Shown here piece after piece: positions 13,128 through 35,699 of a stretch of 38,471 nucleotides of DNA; the stretch's first letter is position 1; each line of letters begins with the position of its first letter. Origin of the DNA: an uncultured bacterium (GTDB lineage Bacteria > Patescibacteriota > Minisyncoccia > Phycocordibacterales > UBA6065); contig CAWJEP010000005.1 of NCBI GenBank assembly GCA_963841935.1, positions 230,003-268,473 on the forward strand. The letters are read 5' to 3'. Below the pieces are notes generated by a model that saw only the letters and a program-made list of their open reading frames with translations, was not told the DNA's origin and did no database searches. The translations under genes were made by a program, and so were the position numbers.

Positions 13128-14318
13128 TTAGTATATTTCGAGTTTGGCTTTTTTCAAACGCGGCAAAACGGTGTCCACAAATTTCCAAGCGGCGAATATT
13201 TCTTTGCCACCGACGAAAAGCTCCCGCCTGTCTTCCGCAGCCGCTTCGAGGATGCGCCCGTAAGCTTCTCCTTCAACCGGAATATCGAGCGTTTCCCCGT
13301 TTTTGAATTCGATTTCAATCGAAGCTTCGCGTTTTGCCAGTTTTTTTCCCGACTGAAGAGTTACCGGAACGCCTTTCAGCTTGCCCTTGTTGAAATACGA
13401 TTCGATTGAGAAGAAAGTTTCAGTCTTGGAATCTTTCGCCACATTTTTCTCGTCCGTATAACCCCTGTATTGGCCGCGATAAATTTTTATTTTTTTCGTC
13501 TCGAGAGATTCCACGACATTGGCGCGGGCGCTGTGCCACGCCGTAGCGGACAAAGTCCGCGGAGGCGTGAGAGCCACGGCCGAGAGCATTTGCAAAATAT
13601 GATTTTGTCCGACGTCCCGGAAAGCACCCACACCATCGTAAGACGTGCCTCGGTCTTTCACGCCGAAATCTTCGGAAATCCACACGCTTATCGATTCTAC
13701 GGTTTTGTTCGAAACGATATCCGAAAAGGTTCTCGATTTCTCGTGGATTTCGGTAAGCGCGCGAAGCGCGCTTTTGCCGAGATAGTGGTCCACGCGATAG
13801 ATTTGCTTGTGTTCGAGAAAAGAAGTGGCGAGAGCGTTTAGCTTTTTCGCCGATTTCAAATCGAGACCGAAAGGCTTTTCGATGAGAATCTTGGGGTCGC
13901 CGACTTCGAGAAGGCGATTTTTTTTCATACAGCGAAGCGCCGTCTCGTAGAGAGTCGGCGCCACAGATACATAAAAAATAAACTTGGCATTGCCGAAAGT
14001 TTTAAGGAATTTTTTCAGTTCCGGCGAGCCGAGACACGAATCGAAGAAAACCGTCTTATAAAAAACTCGCGAGAGAAATTCTTTGCCGTATTTTTCTCGG
14101 CCGAGGAAGTCCCTGAAGTCATCGTCCGACCAAGGACGACGGGAAACGGCGACGACGGAAAAATTCTGATTCTGGAGCGCGTAGTCGGAGCGAAGCGCAC
14201 AAGCGACAGAATCAGAGTTTTTCCGGTGGAGCTCGGCCAGTGCCGGAAATATTTTCCCCGTGGACAAATCTCCCGTCGCACCCAAGATAACGAAAACGAT
14301 TTTTTTATTCTTTCGCAC
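13128..14318 (-). CDS. zwf: Glucose-6-phosphate 1-dehydrogenase (short form)
   Basis: NADP-binding motif ILGATGDLSTGKIFPAL, active-site motif IYRVDHYLGKS, and FRDVGQNHILQML. At 396 aa it is shorter than typical Zwf proteins. Confidence 0.85.
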   Translation of the reverse strand: MRKNKKIVFVILGATGDLSTGKIFPALAELHRKNSDSVACALRSDYALQNQNFSVVAVSRRPWSDDDFRDFLGREKYGKEFLSRVFYKTVFFDSCLGSPELKKFLKTFGNAKFIFYVSVAPTLYETALRCMKKNRLLEVGDPKILIEKPFGLDLKSAKKLNALATSFLEHKQIYRVDHYLGKSALRALTEIHEKSRTFSDIVSNKTVESISVWISEDFGVKDRGTSYDGVGAFRDVGQNHILQMLSAVALTPPRTLSATAWHSARANVVESLETKKIKIYRGQYRGYTDEKNVAKDSKTETFFSIESYFNKGKLKGVPVTLQSGKKLAKREASIEIEFKNGETLDIPVEGEAYGRILEAAAEDRRELFVGGKEIFAAWKFVDTVLPRLKKAKLEIY

Positions 14319-15699: not shown

Positions 15700-15825
15700 A
15701 CATTTCTAAAACGGTTGGGAAATAATTTTCTGTTCCAGAGTCGGAATGTCGACGTAAGCGGAAAGTTTCGGTTCTCTCTCCGCCAAATATATGAGAAGCC
15801 GAATCGTGGATTTTTCCGTCGGATG
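15700..15825. repeat. 126-bp near-identical direct repeat, copy 1 (3' end of DltD-like paralog 1)
   Basis: acatttctaaaacggttgggaaataattttctgttccagagtcggaatgtcgacgtaagcggaaagtttcgg[t]tctctctccgccaaatatatgagaagccgaatcgtggatttttccgtcggatg. It differs from copy 2 at one position. Confidence 0.9.
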
Positions 15826-16800
15826 AGACCCGTCGTAGAGCTCGCTGTCCGACGAACCGATTAGCGAAATATCGCGCAAGTCGTAAAAGCCGTAACCGTA
15901 TTTTGAAAATAGCGAGTTTAAAACATTCGGCACTTCCCTATACGTGGCGCCATGAATGTCATTCAACGACTCTAGCTTCTCGTAAACCTCCAGAGCGTAG
16001 GGAGACAAATATCCTATGACGTATATGTTTCTGGATTTGCACAGCGACAAAAATTCCTCGACGCGAGCGAGGTTTGCCTCCAATATGGAAGTCTCGTACT
16101 CCGTCGAACCCTGTATGTCCGACACGGTCTCCGCTATTTCGCTCGGAATGGTTTTTTGCACCTCTTGTATTTCGGCCGGCGTACCCCTGTCGAGACTGCC
16201 GTCGGCTCTATATCCGTGTCCAGATATAACGGCGTTGAGACCTATGTTGTCGTCGCTTTTCCTGCCCGCGAGAAATTTTTCAAGAGAAAAATAGCCGCTG
16301 AAATAATCCACGTAAAAGTCGCGCCATCCTGTTGTTATGAAGTAAGTAAACGGATTGTAAGTAAAAGAGTTTTCCGAAGCCAAATTGGTGCTCGTTAAAT
16401 AGCTGGAAGCGTCGAAGAGTATGATTTTCGGGTCGCTGCCACTGGGCAGAGCGTTTATGTACTGCGATAAATCATCGGCGTTGAGAGTGTAGTCAGCGGT
16501 ATAACCGGCGTTGTAGAAAGTGCCGGCCTTGAAAAAATCGGAATCGAACGTCAATGTTCTGGATGTTCCCACCACAATAACGTCCGATTTATGCGAAATC
16601 GTCCCGGCTAATTTGTACGGCTTGTCGGTAAAGGACGTGGCGCTCGAAAGATAGAGCACGTCGGGATTTTTTTCTTGAATGTTCACCACTTGTGACATTG
16701 GCATATATTCCCCGCTCATGACAAATATCACAAGCGGCGGCACGAAGAACAGAGATATCGGAATAACAAACAAGAGAGATTTGATAATGAAATTTTTCAT
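15706..16800 (-). CDS. DltD-like / SGNH-type extracytoplasmic acyl-transfer protein, N-terminal TM anchor (paralog 1)
   Basis: An in-frame ATG at 16800 gives 364 aa (MKNFIIKSLLFVIPISLFF...). Candidate nucleophile block VVGTSRTLTF and a C-terminal DxxH block (LYDGSHPTEKS). Size, single N-terminal TM and position downstream of an MBOAT gene match DltD/AlgJ-type partners. Confidence 0.6.
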   Translation of the reverse strand: MKNFIIKSLLFVIPISLFFVPPLVIFVMSGEYMPMSQVVNIQEKNPDVLYLSSATSFTDKPYKLAGTISHKSDVIVVGTSRTLTFDSDFFKAGTFYNAGYTADYTLNADDLSQYINALPSGSDPKIILFDASSYLTSTNLASENSFTYNPFTYFITTGWRDFYVDYFSGYFSLEKFLAGRKSDDNIGLNAVISGHGYRADGSLDRGTPAEIQEVQKTIPSEIAETVSDIQGSTEYETSILEANLARVEEFLSLCKSRNIYVIGYLSPYALEVYEKLESLNDIHGATYREVPNVLNSLFSKYGYGFYDLRDISLIGSSDSELYDGSHPTEKSTIRLLIYLAEREPKLSAYVDIPTLEQKIISQPF

Positions 16801-16801
16801 G

Positions 16802-16927
16802 ACATTTCTAAAACGGTTGGGAAATAATTTTCTGTTCCAGAGTCGGAATGTCGACGTAAGCGGAAAGTTTCGGCTCTCTCTCCGCCAAATATATGAGAAG
16901 CCGAATCGTGGATTTTTCCGTCGGATG
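16802..16927. repeat. 126-bp near-identical direct repeat, copy 2 (3' end of DltD-like paralog 2)
   Basis: Same sequence as 15700..15825, offset by 1102 bp, with a single t/c difference. Confidence 0.9.
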
Positions 16928-17926
16928 TTCCGAATCATACAATTCTGAATCGGAAGACCCTATGGCAGTTAAATTTCTCACGTCATAAAAATCGTACTTG
17001 TATTTCATGAAAAGCGGTTGGATGACGGATGGAGCATTTCTATATGTTTCGCCGTAGGAATTTTGCTCCGATTCCAAAGCGTCATACATTTCAACGGCGT
17101 AGGGAGATAGGTATCCTATGACATAAATATTTTTTGACTTGCAAAGAGCCAATAATTTATCTATCCCGGCAAGATTGCTTTCCGAAAGGGACGCGCCGTA
17201 ATCCAGAGAGGATTCTTGTCCCGCCTTGATGATCGACGTGTAATAAGATATTTCCGACGGAATGCCTTCCTGCATGGTTTGTATTTCTTCCGTTGTCCCC
17301 CTGTCCAAACTGCCGTCTTTTCTGAAGCCGGCTCGATGCAGGATGGCGTCAAGTCCTATGTTTTGATTATCTTTTTCCCCGCTGGCTTGGATCAAAGCGC
17401 CAATAGAAAATCGTCCATTTAGATAATCGGTATATATGTCGTGCCAACCGGACGTCAAAAAAAATGTGAGCGGATTATAAGATGTGACAATATCCGTTCC
17501 CAGCGCGTCAGGACTGTCTATTTTCAAATAACCGGACAAATCAAGAAGTATCAACTTGAGTTTGCTATCCGAAGACAAATCTTTCACGTACTCGTACATA
17601 TCGTTTGCGTTAAGAGTCACCCCTCCGGAATTGTAGAAAACTGTCGGGTCTTTAAAGAAACCGGACTGAAAGGTTACCGACCTGGACGTCCCGAGCACGA
17701 TTATTTCCGGGTCTTCCCGCTTGGCCGAAATGAGTTTGTAAAGCCATTCGGAATCCTTGGGAGACTCCGGCAGATAAAGAATATTGCTCTGACTTTGTTG
17801 CTGGCGATTTATGATGGTTGATAAGGGAAGATATTCTCTGTCGAGAAAAAATACCCCGAAAAATAAAAGAAAAAACAAGGCAATCGGGATACCGAACAAG
17901 AGACATTTGACTATAAAACTTTTCAT
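16808..17926 (-). CDS. DltD-like / SGNH-type extracytoplasmic acyl-transfer protein, N-terminal TM anchor (paralog 2)
   Basis: An in-frame ATG at 17926 gives 372 aa (MKSFIVKCLLFGIPIALFF...). Blocks LGTSRSVTF and LYDSEHPTEKS. It aligns with paralog 1 throughout, and the last 39 aa are identical. Confidence 0.6.
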   Translation of the reverse strand: MKSFIVKCLLFGIPIALFFLLFFGVFFLDREYLPLSTIINRQQQSQSNILYLPESPKDSEWLYKLISAKREDPEIIVLGTSRSVTFQSGFFKDPTVFYNSGGVTLNANDMYEYVKDLSSDSKLKLILLDLSGYLKIDSPDALGTDIVTSYNPLTFFLTSGWHDIYTDYLNGRFSIGALIQASGEKDNQNIGLDAILHRAGFRKDGSLDRGTTEEIQTMQEGIPSEISYYTSIIKAGQESSLDYGASLSESNLAGIDKLLALCKSKNIYVIGYLSPYAVEMYDALESEQNSYGETYRNAPSVIQPLFMKYKYDFYDVRNLTAIGSSDSELYDSEHPTEKSTIRLLIYLAEREPKLSAYVDIPTLEQKIISQPF

Positions 17927-17930
17927 TTTT

Positions 17931-19412
17931 TCAGAATTTAAAATAGATGAACGGCTCGGCACCCAGATAGCCGACTACAAGTATGCTAAAGACGAGTCCA
18001 TAATACGCGCTCCATCGCACTAGACGGCTTTTGTTTTCCAGAATAAATCTCGTGCCTTTTTTCGCCTGAAGATATTGGACGAATTCCATAAATATTATTG
18101 CGACTATTATAATGAGAAAGAATTTCGTCGTGATACCAAGACTGCTATAGCTGAAGATACTCGCGCGAGACGCGTATTCTTCAACCGGATGAGCTATCGC
18201 GTACCACGCCTTTCCGAAAACTTGAAAAGCCTGCGGCATGTCTGCCGCCCGGAAAAAAACAAGACTCACGGTAAAGAGAAAAAAAGTCACGCCGGTCTGC
18301 CATATTTGCCGCAAAGCTTTATGGTTGACCAGACGAGCGGCGCGCGAAATAAAATTTCGCGCGCTCGCCGTCCAGGAAGAAAAAATCATGTAGACGCCTT
18401 GGAGGGTTCCAAAGATTACGTATGTCCAGTTGGCTCCGTGCCAAAGACCTATCAAAACGAAGGTTATGAAAATACTCAAATATATGCGCGCCTTAGTTAT
18501 TTTTTTTCCGGCAAATGCCAATGGATAATAGAGATAATCTTTGAGCCAGCTCGATAGCGATATATGCCATCTCTGCCAAAGTTCCGCGATGGAACGAGAC
18601 GCGTACGGGCGTTCAAAGTTGTTGACCAAATCGTAACCGAAAACCAAAGCCGTACCAACGGCAATGTCGGAATAACCGGAAAAATCGCAGTAAATCTGGT
18701 AGGCGAAGAATACGGCGGCGATTATGACGCTCACGCCGTTTGTGCCGCTTATATTTGAATATATGTGGTCCACCAGAAGTCCTATTCTGTCCGCGATAAC
18801 CAGTTTTTTGAAAAAACCCCAGAGCATGAGTTCGAAACCCCTTCGGATTTTCGCGTAATCGAAAGAGTGCGATTCATGGAACTGGTGTAACAGCTGTTGT
18901 GGCCGCTCGATCGGACCGGCGACGAGCTGAGGAAAAAACATCACGTACAAAGCGTATATTCCGTAGTGCCGCTCCGGCTCCTGTTTGCCTTTGTAAACCT
19001 CAATGACGTAACTAAGACTTTGAAACACGTGAAATGAAAGTCCGAGGGGCAAAGCTATGTCCAAAAGAACCAAAGGATAATTCCAGTGGATGAGCTGGGC
19101 TATGACCGCCACGTTTTCGTTGAAGAAATTAAAATACTTGAAAAAAAACAAAGTGCCGAGATTGGCGATGATACTCATCACGAGAAAAATTTTTCTCCTG
19201 TGTCCGGTGGCTTTGGATATTTGGATTCCCAGGACATAGTCGACGGTTATGAGAAAAAACAGAATCAGAATAAATTTCGGAATGTAGGCCATGTAAAAAT
19301 AACAGCTGCCTAAAAGCAAAAGAAGCCAGCGGTAACGGTCTGGCACGACGGAATAATACAAAAAAAACATCACCACGAAGAAGACGAGGAATTGTAATGA
19401 ATCGAATGACAT
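17931..19412 (-). CDS. Membrane-bound O-acyltransferase (MBOAT; DltB/AlgI-like)
   Basis: 493-aa polytopic ORF. Hallmark motifs are SIAELWQRWHISLSSWLKDYLYYPL and VLIGLWHGANWTYVIFG, which contains the conserved His. Confidence 0.9.
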   Translation of the reverse strand: MSFDSLQFLVFFVVMFFLYYSVVPDRYRWLLLLLGSCYFYMAYIPKFILILFFLITVDYVLGIQISKATGHRRKIFLVMSIIANLGTLFFFKYFNFFNENVAVIAQLIHWNYPLVLLDIALPLGLSFHVFQSLSYVIEVYKGKQEPERHYGIYALYVMFFPQLVAGPIERPQQLLHQFHESHSFDYAKIRRGFELMLWGFFKKLVIADRIGLLVDHIYSNISGTNGVSVIIAAVFFAYQIYCDFSGYSDIAVGTALVFGYDLVNNFERPYASRSIAELWQRWHISLSSWLKDYLYYPLAFAGKKITKARIYLSIFITFVLIGLWHGANWTYVIFGTLQGVYMIFSSWTASARNFISRAARLVNHKALRQIWQTGVTFFLFTVSLVFFRAADMPQAFQVFGKAWYAIAHPVEEYASRASIFSYSSLGITTKFFLIIIVAIIFMEFVQYLQAKKGTRFILENKSRLVRWSAYYGLVFSILVVGYLGAEPFIYFKF

Positions 19413-23055: not shown

Positions 23056-25632
23056 TTATTTAGCCCAGTTGGTCATTAACCATACGAAGTCTTGAATACC
23101 GACAACCGCGTCACCGCTAAAGTCAGCGGCATTTCCGATTCCCGTCTGACCCCAATTAGCCATTAGGAGCACGAAATCCGAGATACCGACATTGGTCGCG
23201 GCAACATTGGAAGATCCGCCGCCACTACTGTAAAAGTGAACAGTGTTAACGGGGCTTGCCGGAGTTGGAACCGGTGTCTCTGTGTAAGTTACGAATGTCG
23301 AGAAGTGCTTCGTCCAGACGATGAGGTCGCTTCCTGAATCGATTTTACAAGACGCGCCTGCGGCAAGAGAGGCATTCTCTGTCGTTTGGTCGTTTGCCGC
23401 GCACGTGTCCGTAATTTCAGTGAACACGTTCGCGTTGTTATACCAGCCAGCAAGCGTTCCTGCCTGACCTGCGAAGGTGAGCTCTACGGCATTGTTGAAG
23501 GTGAGATCGCTCTCGCTTGAGCCGACGGTGGCTGCGGACGTCACTGTCGTGTCAAAGCCCGGAACCACAACGGTCGGTGTCGTTGCCGGCGGAGTCGGTG
23601 CAGAGATAACACCATCCCACGTTGCATTGCCGGTTGCCGTCGTCCCGGAAGGAATGACCGCCGTAATGTTGATATTTGTATTTGCAGTACTCGTGCCGAT
23701 TAGTGTCGTGATACTCGGAAGCGTCGCTGTCTGGTTGCCATTACTGTCCGGTGTCGTAGAGCTCTGAAGCGTCGTCATTCCTGCGTCGGTGTACCAGGGC
23801 GAGACGTTGATGGCGCCACCGCCGGGACTTGCAGTGAACGAGAACGGGTTCGTGGTACTAGTGTTCCAATAGTTGGATGAGGCATCGATATTCGTTGGCA
23901 GGCTCGAGGTGACCCCATCTTGCATGGATGAACTGTCGAAGGAGTTGTGATTGAGGCTGACCGATGCCGAATCAGGATTTGAATCGAAGTTGACTGCCGT
24001 AGCGTAGCCACCCAAAGCGGTAAAGTTGCTGAAAGAGTTGTTCTGAACAACCGCGTTCGGCGTGTCCCCCTCGAGTCCGAGTCCATGGGCGTAATAGCCC
24101 GAAAGATCAGTCACTGAGTTACCTGTAATCTGCGCAGCAGCTATTGAACCACCGACTTTTGCACCGTAATTAAGGAGGATGCCGTAAGCAATCTTGCCTG
24201 TAGGCCACGTCGACGTGTTGTCAGAAACATTCGAGATAGTGTTGTTGCTGATAACCAAGCCCGACAGGATGCCGGTAGCGTTGGAATCTCCAATGCCGAT
24301 CGCACCATTCGAATTCTCCAAGTTAGCGGTGTCACCAACGCCGTTGATGGTGTTGTTGCTGATGGTAACACCAGAAACGCTGCCAGTCGTGTGACCCTGG
24401 AAGTAAATGCCGTAGGCATTGTTCGGAATCAGAGGGTTCGTAGCAGCGAGGGTCGTACCGATGTCAGTAACCGAGTTGTTGGTAACCGATACGTTGCCGA
24501 CACCGTTGATGAGGATTCCGAAACCGCCGCTTGGATTCGTGACCGTGAATCCCGAAAGATTAGTCGACGCAGCATTGATTTGGACTTCGCCATTGATTGT
24601 CGTGTCGGTAGCGCCTGCGCCCTTGAGTGTGATCCCCGTCGGAATCGTTATGTTTTCGTCATAGGTCCCCGCGCTGACAACAATCGTGTCGCCAGAAGAG
24701 GCAGCATTAACCGCAGCTTGAATAGTTGCAAATGGACAGGTCTCAGAGCCATTGTTCGAATCGTTACCACTTGTTGATGATACGAAAACAGAAGTACCAA
24801 CAGTGCCAGTGCAAGAAGTAGGAGTCGAAGTGGTAGGAATCGTAACGGTATTGGCATCGAGCGTCACTTGAGTTTGTGCCAATGCTCTACCATTCAGTAC
24901 TGCACCAGTTTGCATTACAATCTCTGTTTGATCTAGAATATTTCCTACAAACGTGGATGTCGTTTGAAGTGTCGTCGCGCCAGCTACTGCCCAGAAGACG
25001 TTTGCAGATACTGCGCCACCGGTTAGAAGAACACTCGTGGCGGAGCTTATATTGAGAGTTCCCGGTACGATGAATATCCACACATCGGTTGGACCACCAT
25101 TGAGGGTGACATTACCTGTTATTTTCACATTGCCGGGACCAGAAAACGTATAGACACCGGGAGAGAGTGTAAGTCCGGTAAGGTCGCAAGTGCCAGCAAC
25201 ACATTGAGCCGGCGCGGCGACCGAAAGATTTGTTTCATTGACCGATCGGCCAGTGGCATCAGTGTATGCCGCCGCCATATCGGATACAGCCGTACCCAAT
25301 GTGGTCGGAGTGGGAGTCGTGTAGTCGGCCGCGTACAACTTTCCAACTACGTAGATCGATGTTGAAAATTGATTCGAGCCATCCATTGTTTCTGAAAATC
25401 CTGTTAGGGCGGTGTGGTCAATCGGACTTACCCCAATATCTCCGGTAATCAAAGTGGTCCCGGAGGTTGAGATCCCCGATTTTGATAAAATCGCGAAGTT
25501 GCCCGATGTCCCAAGATCGACTGGTGCTGGACTTGCGAACGCGAATGCATTTCCCGCAAACGCGAAAAGGGCGAACGCGACAATACCGCTTACGACGGCC
25601 AGCTTGTAGGCTGACGTTATTGAATATTTCAT
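23056..25632 (-). CDS. Large secreted surface protein: ice-binding-like (DUF3494) domain, right-handed beta-helix repeats, dockerin-like C-terminus
   Basis: Signal peptide (start taken at MKYSIT, ATG 25632). VDLGTSGNFAILSKSGISTSGTTLITGDIGVSPI...TAVSDMAAAYTDATGRS...LSPGVYTF...TDVWIFIV...NVFWAV...GNILDQTEIVMQTGAVLNGRALAQTQVTLDANTVTIP matches the IBP/DUF3494 fold pattern. Repeated NNS/T-V/I-T/S-x-V/I-G units are PbH1-like. The C-terminal pair is GISDFVLLMANWG / GIQDFVWLMTNWA. Confidence 0.8.
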   Translation of the reverse strand: MKYSITSAYKLAVVSGIVAFALFAFAGNAFAFASPAPVDLGTSGNFAILSKSGISTSGTTLITGDIGVSPIDHTALTGFSETMDGSNQFSTSIYVVGKLYAADYTTPTPTTLGTAVSDMAAAYTDATGRSVNETNLSVAAPAQCVAGTCDLTGLTLSPGVYTFSGPGNVKITGNVTLNGGPTDVWIFIVPGTLNISSATSVLLTGGAVSANVFWAVAGATTLQTTSTFVGNILDQTEIVMQTGAVLNGRALAQTQVTLDANTVTIPTTSTPTSCTGTVGTSVFVSSTSGNDSNNGSETCPFATIQAAVNAASSGDTIVVSAGTYDENITIPTGITLKGAGATDTTINGEVQINAASTNLSGFTVTNPSGGFGILINGVGNVSVTNNSVTDIGTTLAATNPLIPNNAYGIYFQGHTTGSVSGVTISNNTINGVGDTANLENSNGAIGIGDSNATGILSGLVISNNTISNVSDNTSTWPTGKIAYGILLNYGAKVGGSIAAAQITGNSVTDLSGYYAHGLGLEGDTPNAVVQNNSFSNFTALGGYATAVNFDSNPDSASVSLNHNSFDSSSMQDGVTSSLPTNIDASSNYWNTSTTNPFSFTASPGGGAINVSPWYTDAGMTTLQSSTTPDSNGNQTATLPSITTLIGTSTANTNINITAVIPSGTTATGNATWDGVISAPTPPATTPTVVVPGFDTTVTSAATVGSSESDLTFNNAVELTFAGQAGTLAGWYNNANVFTEITDTCAANDQTTENASLAAGASCKIDSGSDLIVWTKHFSTFVTYTETPVPTPASPVNTVHFYSSGGGSSNVAATNVGISDFVLLMANWGQTGIGNAADFSGDAVVGIQDFVWLMTNWAK

Positions 25633-25823
25633 ATTTTTATGAGTTAGCTGTTGCATCTCGCTGCCGTTCATGCAGCTACTTTATTACAACTTATAATAAA
25701 CATATACCGCTGGACTAATAGTTTTATTGCCAACTCGGACACTATGGTACTTCCCCATCAAAATGTCAACGAGTCAAAGGGGGTAACTGGTGGACAAAAA
25801 GTGGATAAACAAAAAGACAGCTG

Positions 25824-26910: not shown

Positions 26911-28199
26911 TCAGAAGAGGTTCCTAATGCCCGCGCCGCGAAGCTTCCTGTGATACGCAATGGCGAATCTGTGAGCTTCGGCGTTGGCGAGCAAAATAGA
27001 TTTTTCCAAATTTTTGTCCGCGTTTTTCATTCCGAGAATAGCGCGAGCTTTGTGGCGGTCGTCTTTTACAACGGAAACAATGGTCGGCAACGGCGAGAGA
27101 CGGGCATTTTCTCGCTTGTGCGCTTCGGTCGGACTTAGCGCGCTCGAAAATGCTCCGTCTCTCCGCTAGCCGTTATTGCCTTGCGAGCGACATTCAGTTG
27201 TCCTTTTCCGCCATCAATGACAATCAATTCGGGCATTCCCCATTCCGGATGATTGGCGCGGCGGCGCAAGATTTCGGCGAGACTTTTCGTGTCATTGTTG
27301 CCGATATTTTTGTCCAAACGGAATTTTCGATACTCACTAAACGCCCTTGCGCCGTCTATGATGACGGTCATTACGCCAACGCTTTCCTTTCCCGACGTGT
27401 GTGCGACGTCGTAAGCTTCGATACGCAGTTGCGGCGCGCCCAAAGGGCGCGCCGCCTCATCCTCTTTTATAAGTGCGATGTCCTGAATGTGCTCAAGAGC
27501 GAAAATTTTCCTCTTTATTTCACCGGCTTTTTCGAATTCGCGGGCTTTGGCGAAAGCTTTCATTTCTTTTTGGAGCGATTTTATGACCGCGCCCTTTTTT
27601 CCTTGGAAGAAGAGCCGGATGTGGCGGATATTTTTCAAATATTCCTTTCGCGACTCTTCGCTCGCCGTCTCCGGAGAAAGTCCAATCTGACGATAAAACG
27701 GCGACTGTCTTTTTTGATACGAACGCTCGTCGAGAAACGGAAACATTTTCCGAATAATGCGAAGCGATTCTCTCAAAGCACCGCCGGATGTGAATGGTCC
27801 GAAAGAATCCTGTATTTTGTACGGCGTCGACGCAAGATTTCTTTCCCTCACGACCACAATTCTCGGAAATTTTTCCTTCGTAATCAAAACGAAATTGAAA
27901 CTCTTGTCGTCTTTTTCCTGAACGTTGTAATAAGGCTGAAGTTTCTTTATAAGATTGGCTTCGAGAATGACGGCTTCCAGCACGCTATCAGTCTCTTGCC
28001 ATTTTATCGTCGCGGATTTCGTCACCATATCGACGATTCTCGGCCCGCGTGTGACGATAATATCCGCAGAAAAATAACTCCGCACGCGGTCCTTAAGCGA
28101 TGTCGCTCGGCCGACATACAGAGTCTTTTTCCCTTGTTTCCAGAAATAGACTCCTGGGCCATCAGGGATTTTGAGTTTTATTAAATCTCGAATTTTCAT
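26911..28199 (-). pseudogene. uvrC: Excinuclease ABC subunit C, frame-broken; lacks the C-terminal (HhH)2 region
   Basis: ORF 27135..28199 carries the GIY-YIG domain (GVYFWKQGKKTLYVGRATSLKDRVRSYF), a UVR-like helix region and IVIDGGKGQLNVARKAI, then stops. The next conserved UvrC block (LPTIVSVVKDDRHKARAILG...LLANAEAHRFAIAYHRKLR) is encoded in another frame, 27165..26914, with its stop at 26911..26913. Confidence 0.8.
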
Positions 28200-30834
28200 T
28201 TTTTATCCCTGTCCAAAACTTTTTTCAAATATTTCCCCGTGTAGGATTTCGAATTCCCCGCGACGTTTTCCGGCGTGCCTTTGGCGACGAGAAGTCCCCC
28301 GCCGTTTCCGCCTTCCGGTCCCATATCGATGACCCAATCGCAGGATTTGATGAGGTCGAGATTGTGCTCGATGATGACGACTGTGTTGCCGTGATTTACC
28401 AGGCTTTGCAAAATTTCAATAAGTTTTCGCACGTCTTCGTAATGAAGCCCGACTGTCGGCTCATCGAGAAGATAAATAGTTTTCTGCGTGTGCGGACGAT
28501 AAAGTTCCGAAGAAATTTTCACGCGCTGGGCTTCGCCGCCGGAAAGCGTCGTCGCCGACTGGCCGATTTCCAGATATTCGAGACCGACTTCCGACAAAGT
28601 CTTGAACCTATCGGCAATCGACGGAATGTCCTCGAAAAATTTGAGGCCTTCCTCGACGGTCATTTGGAGGACGTCCCAAATATTTTTTCCTTTGAACGTT
28701 ACTTCGAGCGTATCCTTGGTAAATCGTTTTCCGCCACAGACTTCGCACGGCACGTAAACCGTGGGCAAGAAATGCATTTCGACGGCAATTTCTCCGTTGC
28801 CTTCGCAGGCTTCGCATCTGCCACCTTTGACGTTGAATGAAAAACGATTCGACTTCCAACCGCGAGCACGGGCTTCGGAAGTTTCCGCGAACAAATCGCG
28901 AATATGCGTCCACGCTCCCGTATATGTCGCGGGATTTGTTCGCGGCGTGCTCCAATCGGCGACTGGTCGATGAGAACCGCGCGGCCGGCGTATTCCGTGC
29001 CAGTAAAAGATTTGCAATTGTAGGCTTCGACGGCTTTTCTTCCTCGTTCGTATCTCGACTGCAAATTTTTATACAGAATTTCGTAAAGCAAAGAAGATTT
29101 TCCCGAGCCTGAGACGCCGGTGACGGCGACGAATTTGCCGAGCGGAATATCGACATCCAGATTTTTGATATTGAAAATATTTCCTCCGCGAATCATAATT
29201 TTTCCTTTGTCCTGCTCGCGTCTTTCGTCCGGCATTTCTATTTTTTTGTCGCCGCGGAGATATTCAAGCGTCAGTGAGCCCGATTTATTCGTCTTCGCCG
29301 TGAGTAATTCATCGAGCCAGCCGGAAACGACGACTTTGCCGCCGTGGACGCCGGCTCCCGGACCGATATCGATGATGTAATCGCTCGCAAAAATCGTGTC
29401 TTCATCGTGTTCGACGACGAGGATTGTGTTTCCGAGATTTCGCAAATCAAGAAGTGTTTTGATAAGTCTGTCATTGTCTCTTTGATGAAGTCCTATCGTC
29501 GGCTCGTCGAGAACGTAGAGAGCGCCGACGAGGCCGGAGCCGAGCTGGGACGCGAGACGGATGCGTTGAGCTTCGCCGCCCGAAAGCGTGTAGGCTTTTC
29601 GGTCGAGCGTGAGGTAATCGATGCCGACGTCGAGCATAAAGTGAAGCCGGGACTCGATTTCTTTGAGCACAACCTTGGAAATATTTTTCTCCGTTTCGGT
29701 CAGTTTGAGGTCGCTGAAAAATTCCGCCGCCTGTTCGATCGACATACTCGTGACATCGACGATATTTTTCTCGTTAATCAAAACGTGCAAAGCTTCCTCG
29801 CGCAAGCGTTTGCCTCCGCAAGTCTCGCACGGCTCTTCGCTCCAAATATTTTTCGTTCCGAGACCGTTACAGGCGCTACAGGCGCCATAGGGCGAGTTGA
29901 ACGAGAAAAGTCTCGGCTCGACTTCCGGATACGAATATCCGTCGTACGGGCACATAAATTTCACCGACATCAGTCGCTCTTCTTTGTTGGCTTCAACTTT
30001 GAGAAGTCCATCAGACGCCTTGATTGCGTGTTCGCACGCTTCTGAAAGTCTTTCTCGCGCGTCTTTTGGCTTGGTCTTGAATTCGCTGACGTAAATTTCG
30101 TCAATCAAAATATCAATTGTGTGATGTTTGTTCTTGTCGAGCTCGATACGTTCGCGGAGTCTCTGCATTTTGCCGTCGACTTTCGCCCATTCGTAACCTT
30201 TGCCGAGGAAATCATAGAGCATCTGATAGTATTCGCCCTTCCTACCGACGACGACGGGAGAAAATATTTTTATTTTCTCGGTGCTCGTCGAAACGCCCAT
30301 GACTTTTTTCTCCGATTTCGAAACATCGCTCGTCGTGACCGTCTTCAAAATCGTTTCAATGATTTCTTCGTGCGAAAGCTTCTTTATTTCCCTGTTACAG
30401 ACGAGACAATGCGGTCGGCCGATGCGCGCGTAGAGGACGCGGAGATAATCGTAAATTTCCGTGATGGTGGCGACAGTTGAACGAGGATTGTTGGACCGGC
30501 TCTTCTGGTCGATAGAAATCGCCGGCGAAAGACCGCTGATTTCGTCGACGTCGGGCTTCGACATCTGCCTCAAAAATTGTCTCGCATACGACGAAAGCGA
30601 CTCGACGTAGCGGCGCTGACCTTCGGCGAATATGGTATCGAATGCGAGCGAGGATTTGCCCGAGCCGGAAAGTCCGGTAAATACGACCATCTTGTTTCTC
30701 GGCATTTCGACCGTGATGTCCTTCAAGTTGTGCGTACGCGCGCCTTTCACCACAAGCTTGCCCGCGTGCTCGTCAAATCCCGTTTTGGTTGTTTCTTTCC
30801 CAGTAGTGATTTTTTTATTCGTCAAATTTTTCAT
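28196..30834 (-). pseudogene. uvrA: Excinuclease ABC subunit A, frame-broken once
   Basis: ORF 28699..30834 is a UvrA N-terminus through ...[12 protein letters not shown] and then becomes nonsense. ORF 28196..29017 in another frame resumes ...[31 protein letters not shown]...[18 protein letters not shown]...[15 protein letters not shown]...[10 protein letters not shown]...[12 protein letters not shown]. The junction is at about 28948..28956 (attgga|gcacgccg). Confidence 0.85.
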
Positions 30835-31084
30835 TGAAGTATTCTTTTAACCTTAGTTTCATCATTCGCCTACCTTGCGTCGTTTTTAGATAACCTTCGC
30901 GACGTTTCGCGTCCTGTTCGTTTAAACATGCTTCGTAATAAATAAGTTTCCATGGCGCGTATCTTTTCGTAGAAAAATTTGACTTCTGATTATGTTCTTT
31001 AAAGCGCCGCTTGAGATCCGCCGTATATCCAAAATACAGCTCGGTTGGATACTTTTTGCTTTGTAAACAATATACGTAGAACAT
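30815..31084 (-). CDS. Stand-alone GIY-YIG nuclease-superfamily protein (UPF0213/YhbQ-like)
   Basis: [32 protein letters not shown]...[26 protein letters not shown] carries the GIY...YxG...R...E signature. I take the start at ATG 31084. Its 3' end overlaps the uvrA start by 20 nt. Confidence 0.8.
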
Positions 31085-31134
31085 AATCAAATGAAAAAAA
31101 CTACTACTGGGTTTGTTATATCCATAGCAACTTG

Positions 31135-31195
31135 CCCCAGCGTTTGCCGCTAGGGTGATAGTGGGAGTCTATCACAATGGATATTTTTAGGAAAA
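31135..31195. repeat. 61-nt twin-hairpin intergenic repeat, copy 1
   Basis: ccccagcgtttgccgctagggtgatagtgggagtctatcacaatggatatttttaggaaaa. It contains two adjacent stem-loops: ccccagcg/cgctaggg and gtgatag/ctatcac. 57 of 61 positions are identical to copy 2. Confidence 0.8.
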
Positions 31196-31197
31196 CG

Positions 31198-31219
31198 AAA
31201 ACCGCACGAATGCGGTTTT
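31198..31219 (-). terminator. Rho-independent terminator-like hairpin downstream of gene 31266..31670
   Basis: aaaaccgca-cgaa-tgcggtttt, with T-rich flanks on both strands. It lies 47 nt after the minus-strand stop at 31266. Confidence 0.5.
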
Positions 31220-31265
31220 AGAAAGTATTTAGCCAGACTTTCAGTTAACTGGTAGGCGTAAAGCT

Positions 31266-31670
31266 CTACTTCCTGAAGCATTTGAAGTCTGACTTTATCT
31301 GGTAGGCCACAGATGACTGCGAGTATGGATAGCGGCCACGGACTATCATTCCTCGCTTCGAAAGAGATTCCATGAGCGGGGCGAAAAAATTCCCGGGCAC
31401 TTCTCTCTCTGTGTCAGACATCACCTTACAAATGAGGCCTCCGATTTCCGCGACACTCGAACGTCTGCCATCGATTGCCTTTACAGCAACCTCAATTGTG
31501 ACGTCCGGGGGATAAAGACCTGGGCCAAGAACCAATCCCGTGTAGGACGAATTCGCCTTGAGAAAAGAAGCCAGCGCTTCTCTGAGTTCTGGCATGATGG
31601 CCTCGACAGCCCGTTCCGCGGCCTTAAAATCAATGCCAGCCCAACGACCCTTACCAGTGGACATATTCAT
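31266..31670 (-). CDS. Hypothetical protein
   Basis: 134-aa ORF that is followed by the terminator hairpin. No family recognised. It looks more GC-rich than its neighbours by eye. Confidence 0.5.
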   Translation of the reverse strand: MNMSTGKGRWAGIDFKAAERAVEAIMPELREALASFLKANSSYTGLVLGPGLYPPDVTIEVAVKAIDGRRSSVAEIGGLICKVMSDTEREVPGNFFAPLMESLSKRGMIVRGRYPYSQSSVAYQIKSDFKCFRK

Positions 31671-31829
31671 AGTAAAAAGAAAATCATTGAGATTAAAACA
31701 TGCGCAACCGCGCGCTTTATGTGAGAGGATCTCACATAATAAGCTTGTTTTAAATCTCTAGACTCCGCCGTGTATTATATATGGTGTGGATTATTTGTCA
31801 AATCTATTTTCTTATATCCCTCAATTTCC

Positions 31830-32081
31830 TCACAAATCTTTATACGCGCTGTCTCGTTTCATAACGAGAAGCACGTAAATCAAATCTCCGGAAACTTGAA
31901 AAATAATTCTCATATCCCCTATTCGAAAACGATATGCGTCATAGCCGACGAGTGGTTTCGCGTGCGCCAAAGGATCAGCCAAAGAAGCGAACCAGCGCAT
32001 TTTTAATGCGATTCTTTTTTGAACAGTTTTTGACAGAGCTTCAAACTGTTTCTCCGCCGCCGCGGTATAAAATATTTTCAT
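31830..32081 (-). CDS. RelE/ParE-family type II toxin
   Basis: 83-aa ORF: MKIFYTAAAEKQFEALSKTVQKRIALKM...YRFRIGDMRIIFQVSGDLIYVLLVMKRDSAY, the typical plasmid-stabilisation / ParE-RelE pattern. It lies 3 nt downstream of a small antitoxin-like ORF. Confidence 0.75.
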   Translation of the reverse strand: MKIFYTAAAEKQFEALSKTVQKRIALKMRWFASLADPLAHAKPLVGYDAYRFRIGDMRIIFQVSGDLIYVLLVMKRDSAYKDL

Positions 32082-32084
32082 AGT

Positions 32085-32318
32085 TTACAGACCGAGACGC
32101 TTGAAAAGTTTTTCTTGTGAGATAATCCTACCCGCTTTAACGTCCGTTCTCGCTTCCGTTAATCCGCGTTCAAAAGCGCCAACCTGAAGATTGCCTTGAA
32201 CAAAAGACTGCGCGGCAAGATTGAGCACAGCGCTTAACGAAAGACCCTGCGCACGGGCTTTTTTCATCGCGGCTTTCTTAAGCGACATATCCATATTAAA
32301 AATGGTTTTTGTTGTCAT
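32085..32318 (-). CDS. RelB/DinJ- or RHH-type antitoxin
   Basis: 77-aa ORF: FNMDMSLKKAAMKKARAQGLSLSAVLNLAAQSFV... (beta-strand then helix-helix). It sits in the upstream position of a canonical TA pair. Confidence 0.7.
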   Translation of the reverse strand: MTTKTIFNMDMSLKKAAMKKARAQGLSLSAVLNLAAQSFVQGNLQVGAFERGLTEARTDVKAGRIISQEKLFKRLGL

Positions 32319-32324
32319 AGAAAT

Positions 32325-32352
32325 AGTATATACCCTATATATACGCTGTCAA
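32325..32352 (-). promoter_or_regulatory. Candidate sigma70-type promoter of the TA operon (TTGACA-N16-TATACT)
   Basis: The minus strand reads ttgaca gcgtatatatagggta tatact atttct ATG. The -10 ends 6 nt before the antitoxin ATG, which would give a near-leaderless transcript. Sequence match only. Confidence 0.35.
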
Positions 32353-32392
32353 TTATATTACCTTCGTATATCCCAAAATATTTACAAAAATA

Positions 32393-32453
32393 CCCCAGCG
32401 TCGGTCGCTAGGGTGATAGTGGGAGTCTATCATAATGGATATTTTTAGGAAAA
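32393..32453. repeat. 61-nt twin-hairpin intergenic repeat, copy 2
   Basis: ccccagcgtcggtcgctagggtgatagtgggagtctatcataatggatatttttaggaaaa. Three of the four differences from copy 1 fall in the loop of hairpin 1. The fourth is at the terminal pair of hairpin 2. Confidence 0.8.
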
Positions 32454-32475
32454 TAAAAAGACTATAAGTGATAGA

Positions 32476-32730
32476 ATGAAACGGATGAAAGAGATATATC
32501 GCATGTGGAAACTAATTTGTTTTTTCAAGGGGAAACAATTGTTTCTAGCTGAGCCCGATCCAATTGACCAATCAATAATTGCGAGTAAAAAAATGCCTGA
32601 ACTCATGGTCAGATCAATTTCTGTTTTAGTTCATAAAAATGACCCAAGAGTTAGAAGGGATAAACTGATGGCATTTTTTACTTCCTATTATTTTTCTGAA
32701 TACGCAGGAGAAGGTAGGGTGTCATTGTGA
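32476..32730 (+). CDS. Hypothetical protein
   Basis: 84-aa ORF in an AT-rich patch. Its TGA overlaps the GTG start of the next ORF (GTGA). No family recognised. Confidence 0.4.
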   Translation: MKRMKEIYRMWKLICFFKGKQLFLAEPDPIDQSIIASKKMPELMVRSISVLVHKNDPRVRRDKLMAFFTSYYFSEYAGEGRVSL

Positions 32731-32993
32731 ATCAACATCCTAATCATCCAGAGCATTTAGCGGAATCAAAATCAATTATAAATAGTTGTGTTACGAATGG
32801 TTTTTTGGCGGAAGATGGAGATGAATTGGTTTATATAACAGGAGAAGGAAAAAAGTTTGCTGATATGGGAGGGTTGATTAGAGAATGGGCAATATACTCA
32901 CAACCTATAAGAGTCTTAATAGGCGTTGGTATTGTTACTTTAATTGCCGATATAGTAGCTATAATTATCTGGATAATAAGGCTATTTTTTTGA
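32727..32993 (+). CDS. Hypothetical protein with C-terminal TM anchor
   Basis: 88-aa ORF that ends IRVLIGVGIVTLIADIVAIIIWIIRLFF. It is coupled to the upstream ORF. No family recognised. Confidence 0.4.
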   Translation: MNQHPNHPEHLAESKSIINSCVTNGFLAEDGDELVYITGEGKKFADMGGLIREWAIYSQPIRVLIGVGIVTLIADIVAIIIWIIRLFF

Positions 32994-33061
32994 AGTTAAG
33001 CGTCTGTCAATGGTGCTACAATGTGAATATCTAAAATTAAAAGTTAAGAAGAAATAAACTT

Positions 33062-33325
33062 ATGTGGAAAAACTGGTATGTTTATGTCATAGGAGTAATT
33101 ATCGGAGCAGTTCTTGTCGCTCTTAATCTTAGTTTTATATGGTTTGTCGTTGTCATAGTTGTGGCATAACTGATTGGTACCCAAATAGATGGTACAAGAA
33201 CAGATGTTAGGGTTGATGAATTGGAAAAAAGAATTGGGGACTTAGAGAATCAAACCCGTCATCTTCGTAAAAGAGCTTCAGAGCAGTATGATGAATATGA
33301 AAGGATAGACCCTTCAATGCCTTAG
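33062..33325 (+). pseudogene. Small TM peptide (35 aa) continued in-frame after a TAA by a 51-codon coiled-coil-like segment
   Basis: Hand translation: MWKNWYVYVIGVIIGAVLVALNLSFIWFVVVIVVA*LIGTQIDGTRTDVRVDELEKRIGDLENQTRHLRKRASEQYDEYERIDPSMP*. The TAA is at 33167..33169. The second stop is at 33323..33325 in the same frame. Confidence 0.3.
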
Positions 33326-35470
33326 GGTAACGTTGTATATAGTTCCCTTAAAATATTTCCTTATATCCCTCAATTTCCTCACCCTCGTTAATTTTTCTTC
33401 CGCCGTTTTGATTTTCTTTTCGGCTTTTTGGATTTTGCCGAATTTCATTTCGAGAGTAGCTATTTCGTCACGAAGAATCGCCGCCGTTTCGAAGTCGAGG
33501 TCTTTCGCCGCATCGTTCATTTGTTTTTCTTTCTGCTTTATCAAAGCTTGCGGATTGTCGGCAAACATTTTCTCGTCGAGAGCGAGCAGGCCTTTCACCG
33601 TTTTCTGATGGTCGCTTTGCATATGCTCGGTGATATCTTTTATGCCCTTGATGATGGTCGTCGGCGTGATGCCGTGTGTCGTATTGTATGCGATTTGAAT
33701 ACCGCGGCGGCGATTGGTCTCCGCCATAGCTCTCTCTATCGAGCCGGTGATGTGGTCGGCGTAAATGATGACACGGCCTAGACTATTTCTCGCGGCGCGG
33801 CCGATGATTTGGATAAGAGACGTCTCGGAACGCAAGAAACCTTCCTTGTCGGCGTCGAGAATGCCGATGAGCGTCACTTCCGGCAAGTCGAGTCCTTCGC
33901 GCAGGAGGTTTACGCCGACGAGAATATCGAATTTGCCGCGGCGAAACTCGGTGAGTATCGTGATGCGGTCTATGGTTTTGATATCGCTATGCAAATATTC
34001 GGCTTTTATTTTTTTCCCCTCCTCATCGGCGGGCAGGCCTTTGAGATAGTCAGCCAAATCTTCCGCCATCTTTTTCGTCAGCGTTGTGGCGATGACACGG
34101 TGACCGTCTTTGACCGATTTTTCCGCCTGAGCGATAAAATCAAAAATCTGTCCCTTGTAATTCCCTTTTTCCGAGACACCGCGCACTTCTATTTCCGGGT
34201 CAAGAAGTCCCGTCGGGCGGATGACTTGCTCGACGATTTGTGTACGATGACTTGCCTCTCATAATCCGCCGGCGTCGCTGACGTGTAGACGACTTGGCCG
34301 ACGCGTTTGTCGAATTCTTCGAATTTGAGCGGTCTATTGTCTCTCGCCGACGGCAAGCGAAAGCCGTGCTCGACGAGCGTTTGCTTTTCGGCTCTGGTCG
34401 CCCGCATACATACCGCGAATTTGGGATACGGTGACGTGGCTTTCGTCGATGACGGTAAGGAAATCCGGCGTGCCGTCGGCTTTGTGCGGAAAATACGCAA
34501 GCAGTGAATCCGGCGGTTCGCCTTCTTTTTTGCCCGAAAAATGTCTCGAATAGTTTTCAATGCCGTTTGTGTATCCGATTTCGCGAATCATTGCGAGGTC
34601 GTATGTCGTGCGGCGTTTCAATCGTTCCGCCTCCAAATTTTTGCCGGCTTTTTTGAGTTCTGCGAGGCGTTCATCAAGCTCGAGCTTTATCGACTCGACC
34701 GCGCGCTTCACATCGTCGTCGGCGGTAATGAAATGTTTCGCCGGAAAGAGAAAGAAAACTTTTTCTTGCTGTATCAGTCGTCGCGTCGTCGGATCTATTT
34801 TTTCAATTGATGCTATAACGTCGCCTTCTATGGAAACGCGGTAAATCATTTTCTCCGACGTCGGCATAATTTCGATTTTATTGGCAATGGCGCGAAAATT
34901 TCCCGGTGAAAGGTCGGCGTTCGTGCGTTCGAAATGAATATCAACTAGTCGGTGGATGAAATCCGTACGGGAAATTTTCGCGCCGACTTCGAGCTTCATA
35001 TTTTCCTTTTCGTATTCGGCGGGAGAACCCAAGCCGTAAATGCAGGAGACCGACGCGACGATTATGACATCTTTGCGCGTAAGCAAAGCTTGCGTCGAAG
35101 CGTGGCGCAGTCGGTCTATTTCTTCGTTTATCATCGCTTCCTTCTCTATATATGTATCGGTCACCGGCATATAGGCTTCGGGCTGATAGTAGTCGTAATA
35201 CGAAACGAAATAATGCACGGCGTTCTCGGGGAAAAATTCCGCGTACTCCTGCGCGAGCTGGGCGGCGAGAGTTTTGTTGTGGGCAATGACGAGTGTCGGC
35301 TTACCTATTTGTTGTATGACATTCGCCATCGTAAACGTCTTGCCCGAGCCCGTGACGCCGAGAAGCGTCTGGTGCCTGTCGCCCTCTTTGAGGCCTTTGA
35401 CAAGCGCCTCGATGGCTTTCGGTTGGTCGCCGGCAGGCTTGTAATCACTATGAAGTTTGAAAACTGACAT
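33314..35470 (-). pseudogene. uvrB: Excinuclease ABC subunit B, frame-broken twice
   Basis: Three consecutive ORFs in different frames together give a collinear UvrB. (1) From ATG 35470: MSVFKLHSDYKPAGDQPKAIEAL...GVTGSGKTFTMANV...YFVSYYDYYQPEAY...[23 protein letters not shown]. (2) [24 protein letters not shown]...[10 protein letters not shown]. (3) [21 protein letters not shown]...TTLTKKMAEDLADYL...YLHSDIKTIDR...VGVNLLREGLDLPEV...DADKEGFLRSETSLIQIIGRAARN... Confidence 0.85.
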
Positions 35471-35498
35471 AAAGGCAAATATACATTGAATATCGGAA

Positions 35499-35528
35499 AT
35501 AAAAAAGCCGACCTCGGGAGGTCGGCTT
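35499..35528 (-). terminator. Rho-independent terminator (minus strand)
   Basis: The minus strand reads aagccgacc-tcccga-ggtcggctt followed by ttttttatttcc. It comes immediately after the stop of the 54-aa ORF and just upstream of uvrB. Confidence 0.65.
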
Positions 35529-35534
35529 GATTTC

Positions 35535-35699
35535 TTACACTGACCTTGCGCGAGCGCGGAAGTCCTGAAGCGAACGGCAGCCGAGGAAAGCAATGAGAGG
35601 AGGGAGAGCGACATTGAATCTGCCGCTGAGCCTTCCATTGCGCCCCACCTGCCGCCCACGCGGAGTTTCGCGCTTCTTTGTGGCGGTTGTGGTTTTCAT
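35535..35699 (-). CDS. Candidate 54-aa basic small protein (alternatively part of a structured ncRNA)
   Basis: Below the ORF-track cutoff. AGGAG lies 6 nt upstream of ATG 35699. Translation: MKTTTATKKRETPRGRQVGRNGRLSGRFNVALPPLIAFLGCRSLQDFRALARSV*. A strong terminator follows. The region is visibly GC-rich with long-range complementarity, so a coding status is uncertain. Confidence 0.3.
   Translation of the reverse strand: MKTTTATKKRETPRGRQVGRNGRLSGRFNVALPPLIAFLGCRSLQDFRARARSV

Follow-up and report, generated by a model that had tools for sequence, protein, structure and literature searches.

Loss of repair genes is a known feature of reduced genomes. Palindromic repeats are said to occur in frame within protein-coding genes as well, the Rickettsia palindromic elements (RPEs) being those that Ogata et al. 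reportedly described in 2000. Frameshifting insertion and deletion (indel) errors in the consensus of long-read genomes and metagenome-assembled genomes (MAGs) are addressed by proovframe (bioRxiv 10.1101/2021.08.23.457338), and their occurrence in bacterial assemblies is discussed in the Trycycler paper (PMC8442456). All of these bear on the locus described here, the nucleotide excision repair (NER) genes uvrA, uvrB and uvrC of an uncultured bacterium of the Patescibacteriota (assembly GCA_963841935.1). The genes lie in a 38,471-nt stretch of DNA that was analysed as a whole (the window; C5:230003-268473, the final 38.5 kb of contig C5), and the reading frame of each is broken. At face value, this would be a bacterium of the Candidate Phyla Radiation (CPR)/Patescibacteria in the course of losing NER, and would feed ideas on the mutation rates of episymbionts and the reduction of their genomes. 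The genome-wide pattern of frame breaks makes it very probable that the uvr breaks are single-base consensus errors of the MAG, and that all three genes are intact and functional in the organism. A by-product of the analysis, and the only real biology behind the breaks, is a further in-gene copy of a genus-specific hairpin repeat, located in uvrC, along with an apparent empty-apex state in a congener.

The source genome (G000) comprises 630,097 bases in six contigs, with a G+C content of 47–49% and a listed completeness of 96%. The named UvrA homologs nearest to that of the window come from Paceibacterota/Patescibacteria MAGs. Two genomes of the same genus (G001 and G002) and one from another genus of the same family (G004) were compared with it, the comparison DNA being 397 kb of G001 and the whole of G004. 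The presence of uvr genes was surveyed in 31 genomes (G000 and 30 relatives of the same order), and the intact uvrA closest to that of the window is found on L109 (P0002), a Joint Genome Institute (JGI) metagenome contig. Frame breaks were counted with an in-house, frameshift-aware, three-frame dynamic-programming aligner of protein to DNA.

The uvr genes and their frame breaks

The three genes were delimited as follows, their pieces being given as open reading frames (ORFs):

26911-28199, minus strand: uvrC, as ORF 27135-28199 (354 aa) and a tail that runs to a stop at 26911.
28196-30834, minus strand: uvrA, as ORFs 28699-30834 (711 aa) and 28196-29017 (273 aa).
33314-35470, minus strand: uvrB, as ORFs 34334-35659, 34189-34560 and 33314-34186.

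The uvrA stop overlaps the uvrC start. Pfam matches identify all three products: UvrA by UvrA_inter (PF17760, 3.1e-21) and by ABC_tran on both pieces; UvrB by ResIII (PF04851), UvrB_inter (PF17757), Helicase_C (PF00271), UvrB (PF12344) and UVR (PF02151); and UvrC by GIY-YIG (PF01541), UVR (PF02151) and UvrC_RNaseH_dom (PF08459), with the UvrC tail motif AEAHRFAIAYHRKLR found past the break. UvrA is 78–81% identical to that of G004 (882 aa), residues 14-882 of which were aligned with one frame change, and 96% identical at the amino acid level to that of L109, the DNA identity being 87% over 3.5 kb. Residues 2-685 of G004 UvrB were aligned with two frame changes. Pfam gave no helix-hairpin-helix (HhH) match to the window pieces for the C-terminal (HhH)2 DNA-binding domain of UvrC. 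The UvrC open frames of relatives are equally short, just 403–494 aa, so a UvrC without the HhH domain is a trait of the lineage and not damage.

Frameshift-aware alignment and direct reading of the sequence agree on one break in uvrA, two in uvrB and at least one in uvrC, the numbers that an earlier, sequence-only reading of the window had given. Those of uvrA and uvrB are located as follows:

28951-28953 (aligner: ~28949), minus strand: uvrA break, one G lost (GGG to GG), the reading shifting after ...IDQSPIG.
34385-34388 (aligner: 34384-34388), minus strand: uvrB break 1, one extra A in CGAAAAG (AAA to AAAA).
~34255-34261, minus strand: uvrB break 2, in GATTATGAGAGG, one base missing or an extra AG.

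At the uvrA site, the alignment to L109 sets ATTGGAGC of the window against ATTGGGAGA of the relative and, in the wider context, CCGATTGG-AGCACG against CCGATTGGGAGAACT. For uvrB break 2, the frameshift-aware alignment places a missing base at ~34268. Relatives read ...ATPG.YE[RK]E.S...VEQVIRPTG across this break, and the other frame of the window takes over exactly there; homology thus moves the break ~20 nt upstream of 34237-34239, where it had first been put. When the sequence was read directly, no X XXY YYZ slippery heptamer was present at any uvr break, and the directions are mixed (+1 and -1), both as first observed. The breaks had also been described as lying at short homopolymers, which holds for the GGG of uvrA and the AAA of uvrB, very short runs in either case, but fails for uvrC, where the break lies in a hairpin insert (see below).

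The gap between uvrB and uvrA consists of 2.5 kb of lower-GC DNA (window 30815-33313), compared with ~550 nt in G002. Within it lie the genes for a small protein of the GIY-YIG type (30815-31090) and, at 31830-32318, for a toxin of the ParE type and its upstream partner. Two 67-nt direct repeats (31135-31201 and 32393-32459, 91% identical) enclose 1.26 kb of the DNA between uvrB and uvrA, and G002 carries a single copy of this repeat, upstream of uvrA. The gap has the look of a toxin-antitoxin cassette that was inserted or duplicated.

Frame breaks across the genome

A census of frame breaks was made with non-overlapping ORFs of at least 150 aa as queries, each aligned to its best locus. The comparisons used were those with G000 as the target, and with G001 and G004 as control targets:

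G004 queries, G000 target: 56 frame breaks in 284 orthologs, 1.86 per 10 kb.
G004 queries, G001 target: 4 frame breaks in 201 orthologs, 0.19 per 10 kb.
G001 queries, G000 target: 80 frame breaks in 273 orthologs, 2.92 per 10 kb.
G001 queries, G004 target: 3 frame breaks in 194 orthologs, 0.15 per 10 kb.

With the two query sets merged, G000 shows at least 102 distinct frame-breaking indel sites in conserved genes, and its rate is 10–20 times that of the same-genus genome with the same queries. Several genes are broken repeatedly, namely secA and valS (5 sites each), obg (4), trpS (3), dnaG (2) and tig, encoding trigger factor (2); further broken genes include rpoC, dnaB, ligA, tsaD, pyrD and the gene for glycyl-tRNA synthetase. 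Genes such as secA, valS and rpoC are indispensable and single-copy, so no cell could carry all of them as null alleles. Fifty-two sites were placed at the nucleotide level by comparison with G001; 27 of these are +1 changes and 18 are -1 changes (45 of 52), and most lie in runs of 1–3 identical bases, which led to the rejection of long-homopolymer error as a full description. In-frame stops were not in excess with the G004 query set, the only one in which they are interpretable, since the count with G001 queries was swamped by antisense shadow ORFs.

An earlier and cruder census, based on chained tblastn high-scoring segment pairs (HSPs), had given 28 frame breaks against 1. Such chaining undercounts, and it missed every uvr break because tblastn crossed the two close uvrB shifts and the internal ABC repeats of UvrA confused the chaining. 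When G000 ORFs were aligned to G001, 57 apparent G001 frameshifts were rejected as mirror images of the breaks in G000 itself, which arise when the out-of-frame tail of a G000 ORF aligns to a different frame of G001.

The sites are strongly clustered: C5:10-30 kb contains 23 of them, C5:40-60 kb contains 11 and C1:190-210 kb contains 10. Several clusters are near contig ends; the uvr cluster lies 4–11 kb from the end of C5. Four or more sites occur in 10% of all 8.56-kb stretches, and two or more in 14 of the 284 genes. NER is not singled out, and the uvr breaks show no enrichment over the clustering seen across the genome. The proposal that the uvr genes are selectively broken is not borne out, given the frequency of such stretches and the breaks in secA, valS and other genes. 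The same sequence-only reading had named a genome-wide count as one way to check it, and split genes do prove, in substance, to be equally frequent across the genome.

Duplicate loci within the assembly

Two parts of the genome were assembled twice. The ends of C1 (220072-226187) and C3 (20714-26832) overlap by 6.1 kb, with 99.4% identity and six indels. The longest ORF at C1:222867 measures 187 aa in C1 but 582 aa in C3, and that at C1:225903 measures 851 aa in C1 but 923 aa in C3; both positions were also flagged as frameshifts in the tblastn-chaining census. Contig C6 duplicates C3:2210-12512 (10.3 kb) with 97.3% identity and 57–65 mostly one-base indels, and the longer ORF is in C3 at 43 of 57 indels. 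The same locus is thus present twice, differing by indels and with one copy intact, which demonstrates that the assembly consensus makes ORF-breaking indel errors. As a practical matter, C6 repeats part of C3 at low quality, and the ends of C1 and C3 could be joined.

One-base indels that break indispensable genes are therefore found throughout the assembly, and the problem is one of data quality rather than loss of DNA repair. Of the two readings first offered for the uvr breaks, sequencing or assembly errors and pathway decay, the former is the one upheld by the number of sites, the broken essential genes and the one-base disagreements between redundant contigs. The breaks are real in the deposited sequence but almost certainly not in the organism. 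The isolated +1 and -1 changes, with insertions at least as common as deletions, suggest an insufficiently polished long-read assembly. Most likely, the four or five uvr breaks are one-base insertions or deletions wrongly introduced into the MAG consensus. Errors spread unevenly would form clusters, and one error-rich patch covering the uvr region would hit all three genes, since uvrB, uvrA and uvrC are adjacent.

A hairpin repeat within uvrC

The frame change in uvrC lies between ...KAITASG and LSPLPTIVSVVK (~27157 by the aligner). Between ...KGQLNVARKAITASG and LSPLPTIVSVVKDD, the window has 62 bases more than G002 and 68 more than other genera. What had been taken for a plain homopolymer indel sits in an inserted hairpin repeat that was overlooked at the time, and which is extra sequence compared with G002, G004 and eight further relatives:

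27095-27163, minus strand: hairpin repeat element in uvrC, 69 nt, with arms of 18 and 17 nt and an apex of 34 nt.
27138-27165, minus strand: uvrC frame-error zone, from just past the frame-0 TAG (27166-27168) up to the TAA (27135-27137) at which the upstream frame terminates.

The arms are GAGAGACGG(A)GCATTTTC and GAAAATGCCCGTCTCTC, and the 34-nt core is GAGCGCG(C)TAAGTCCGACCGAAGCGCACAAGCGA. The predicted folding energy is -38.5 kcal/mol (z = -6.4). A search of the window against Rfam returned six tRNAs only, with no family for the uvrC hairpin.

Alignment to 21 other copies places the element in a repeat family defined by a nearly invariant apex of ~33 nt (GAGCGCGTA(A)GTCGGAGCGAAGCGCACAAGCGA) and by complementary arms that are specific to each copy. 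The core seed motif matched at 26 places in G000, nearly all of them within such elements, and at 12 in the 397 kb of G001; there are no matches in G004, where the family was not found. Many copies resemble terminator hairpins between genes. Others within long ORFs appear to be read through as ...FERVSRSEAHKR... or ...GERVVGAKRTSE..., and the in-frame copies occur in ORFs of 521, 684, 533, 430 and 400 aa, the last being zwf. The uvrC copy, as assembled, is out of frame by 1–2 bases, and it deviates from the family at two positions: an extra C in the apex (27138), within an otherwise invariant stretch of the core, and an unpaired A in the left arm (27154), bulging from otherwise complementary arms. 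These two bases are the candidate errors. Without C27138 and A27154, the element reads GIFERVSPTEAHKRENAR in the usual frame of the family and joins the uvrC tail in frame. Alternatively, one missing base within 27138-27165 also restores the frame. In both cases the uvrC break comes down to one or two single-base indels within a real insert that is probably translated. Errors aside, the gene does carry a hairpin element of ~66 nt, in the linker before the conserved ...VVSVVKD... strand of the RNase-H-like endonuclease domain, and in the true sequence the element is probably read through in frame, like the family copies in other genes.

The explanation that survives best beside consensus error is a mixed one, in which the uvrA and uvrB breaks are assembly errors while uvrC is truly disrupted by an out-of-frame hairpin that brings in a TAA stop. 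It accounts for an insert whose excess over relatives (62–68 nt) is not a multiple of three, and for an upstream uvrC frame that runs into the TAA of the element; moreover, the repeat family is a real one that moves over evolutionary time, being present in G000 and G001 but absent in G004. It is nonetheless unlikely. Copies within other long ORFs are in frame, and the uvrC copy is off its family by exactly two single extra bases, insertions being the commonest error class here. The uvrC tail past the element is conserved, with 81% amino acid identity to G002 compared with 67% for the rest of the protein. The copy also looks old and diverged, and an out-of-frame insertion in a gene kept by relatives would hardly survive.

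The weakest explanation, programmed recoding (ribosomal frameshifting, transcriptional slippage or translational bypass of the hairpin), can draw on the very stable hairpin followed by a stop codon at the uvrC break, superficially like bypass signals, but it is extremely unlikely given that no site has a slippery heptamer, that directions are mixed, that no relative shares the breaks and all those listed have single open frames, and that over 100 comparable breaks are spread across the genome in unrelated sequences.

A second copy of the family lies in the window, within zwf (glucose-6-phosphate dehydrogenase, ORF 13128-14318, minus strand, intact). It occupies 14152-14226, with its apex at 14170-14208, and is in frame in the opposite orientation, reading ...SVACALRSDYALQ....

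Selection on the uvr genes and their retention in relatives

Several observations weigh against consensus error as the source of the uvr breaks. Indels were placed at the nucleotide level through relatives that are only 75–90% identical, which makes positions and homopolymer contexts approximate. The uvr genes have 4–5 breaks in ~6.1 kb, a density roughly threefold the genome-wide mean; this is compatible with clustering but is no proof. The uvrC hairpin is more diverged than other copies, and its extra C could be real, in which case a different single-base explanation would be needed. Metagenome scans with the uvrA site and with the uvrC hairpin, each allowing for the bases in question, and a look-up of exact proteins, found no same-strain DNA, the best non-self UvrA being 96% identical. 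All three genes of one pathway are broken, whereas the remaining genes recognised in the 38-kb window are spared. That contrast had been drawn from the sequence and it stands: no frame break was seen in other window genes with an ortholog in G001 or G004, and Pfam shows no gene split over neighbouring ORFs for ychF, zwf, tatC, the GT2 genes, the RmlD-like gene, the MBOAT gene, ddl, tgt, or the FKBP and LOG genes.

The contrast speaks for genuine decay of NER, whereby real indels recently inactivated uvrA, uvrB and uvrC in a reduced, host-dependent lineage, as does the background of repair-gene loss in reduced genomes. Selection on uvrA does not bear this out. Compared with L109, the ratio of nonsynonymous to synonymous substitution rates (dN/dS) is 0.052 upstream of the break (618 codons) and 0.024 downstream (251 codons), with dS at 0.6–0.8, and amino acid identity is 97% on either side. 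Selection is thus strongly purifying, and is not relaxed downstream of the break. The uvr genes of G000 contain no nonsense mutations or deletions. Among the 31 genomes, uvrA and uvrB are each present in 28 and uvrC in 27; the matches listed for relatives are all without internal stops, and most of their open frames are full length (UvrA ~840–916 aa, UvrB 675–759 aa, UvrC 403–494 aa).

Decay would also have to be reconciled with the same kind of lesion in secA, valS, rpoC, dnaB, ligA, trpS and others, and with duplicated contigs that differ by indels. The uvr genes are adjacent, so that a single error-rich patch suffices to break them all, and stretches with four or more sites are, as noted, not rare. 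Ongoing decay, the second of the readings first offered, is therefore very unlikely; the sister-genome comparison suggested along with it was made, and is the source of the retention results above.

Consensus error in the MAG remains the preferred explanation. About 10% of the conserved genes of G000 are split, compared with roughly 2% in G001, and calls of 'pseudogene' or 'pathway loss' from this genome are therefore unsafe until it has been polished.

Palindromes in the uvr genes of relatives

In G002 (L031, G002:C39), uvrC carries a perfect 18-bp palindrome, CGGCGCGGAAAGTTTTTT cggac AAAAAACTTTCCGCGCCG, at the site matching the G000 insert, near ...NTARKVFSDKKLSAPPT.... It has a 5-nt loop and no conserved apex, and a native-like linker is still encoded. 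No palindrome was present at the insert site in eight further relatives from other genera. A tentative and rather doubtful suggestion is that the uvrC locus forms a natural before/after pair for an undescribed mobile hairpin, with a conserved 33-nt apex on 17-bp arms in G000 and a palindrome without the apex in G002. If this were true, the apex cassette would enter or leave pre-formed palindromes, or leave a palindromic scar behind, and the hairpin arms would be rebuilt from local coding sequence with UvrC still functional.

A 21-nt mini-palindrome, CCTGCCTGCCGGnnAGGCAGG, is found in frame in L109 uvrA (~window 29771) and in G002 uvrC, where it adds ...DLPAGQAG.... Similar copies are present in G000 at C1:59760, C5:43044 and C5:193985, and this may be another small hairpin repeat. 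The uvrC of L109 has ~72 extra bases at ~window 27425-27467, forming a long hairpin with arms of ~GTTGCGAATGTGTTTTTTGAA and TTCAAAAAACACATTCGCAAC and an apex unlike that of the G000 element. It seems that uvr genes of this lineage commonly carry hairpin inserts.

Other genes of the window

Three pairs of ORFs suspected of being frameshifted (12544-13188/13128-14318, 19436-20323/20205-20621 and 20841-21926/21889-22326) turned out to be distinct genes, the members of each pair differing in Pfam family or having orthologs of their own. Two further ORFs on the minus strand, 15706-16938 (410 aa) and 16808-17962 (384 aa), overlap by 130 nt; the pair has no Pfam match and no ortholog in G001 or G004, and could represent two genes or a single gene broken by one more indel. 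An 871-aa protein encoded at 23056-25671 combines an N-terminal ice-binding-like domain (PF11999, 1.9e-63) with a DUF1565 (pectin-lyase-like) region, and is probably a surface protein.

Comparison with known systems

The window's proteins are close in composition to the canonical bacterial UvrABC of E. coli and Bacillus. UvrA has the same domain content (two ABC modules and the UvrB-interaction domain), UvrB shares the helicase domains, the UvrB-interaction domain, the UvrB motif and UVR, and UvrC shares the GIY-YIG, UVR and RNase-H-like endonuclease domains. UvrC differs in being short, here and in all relatives, with no (HhH)2 detected, and in that uvrC of this genus bears a hairpin or palindrome insert.

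Symbionts with reduced genomes that have lost repair genes are similar to G000 in the small size of the genome (630 kb) and in the probably host-dependent lineage. They differ in that each uvr gene is retained in 27–28 of 31 genomes, dN/dS is 0.02–0.05, and the uvr lesions are indistinguishable from those in essential genes. The likeness to long-read consensus errors is closer: many isolated one-base indels split conserved and essential genes at uneven density, redundant consensus copies disagree, and nonsense mutations are not in excess. Most G000 indels, unlike long-read errors of the homopolymer type, lie outside long homopolymers, and the cause is assigned from the pattern.

Like the RPEs, the hairpin family is a dispersed, hairpin-forming repeat that occurs both between genes and within ORFs, where it appears to be read through (the window has one copy in zwf, in frame, and one in uvrC, probably read through in the true sequence). 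Unlike them, it is much shorter (~67 nt), only a 32–34-nt apex is conserved, and the arms differ from site to site yet remain complementary. A further point of difference is the congener with a palindrome lacking the core at the matching uvrC site. By analogy, the family appears to resemble RPEs in its behaviour and not in its architecture.

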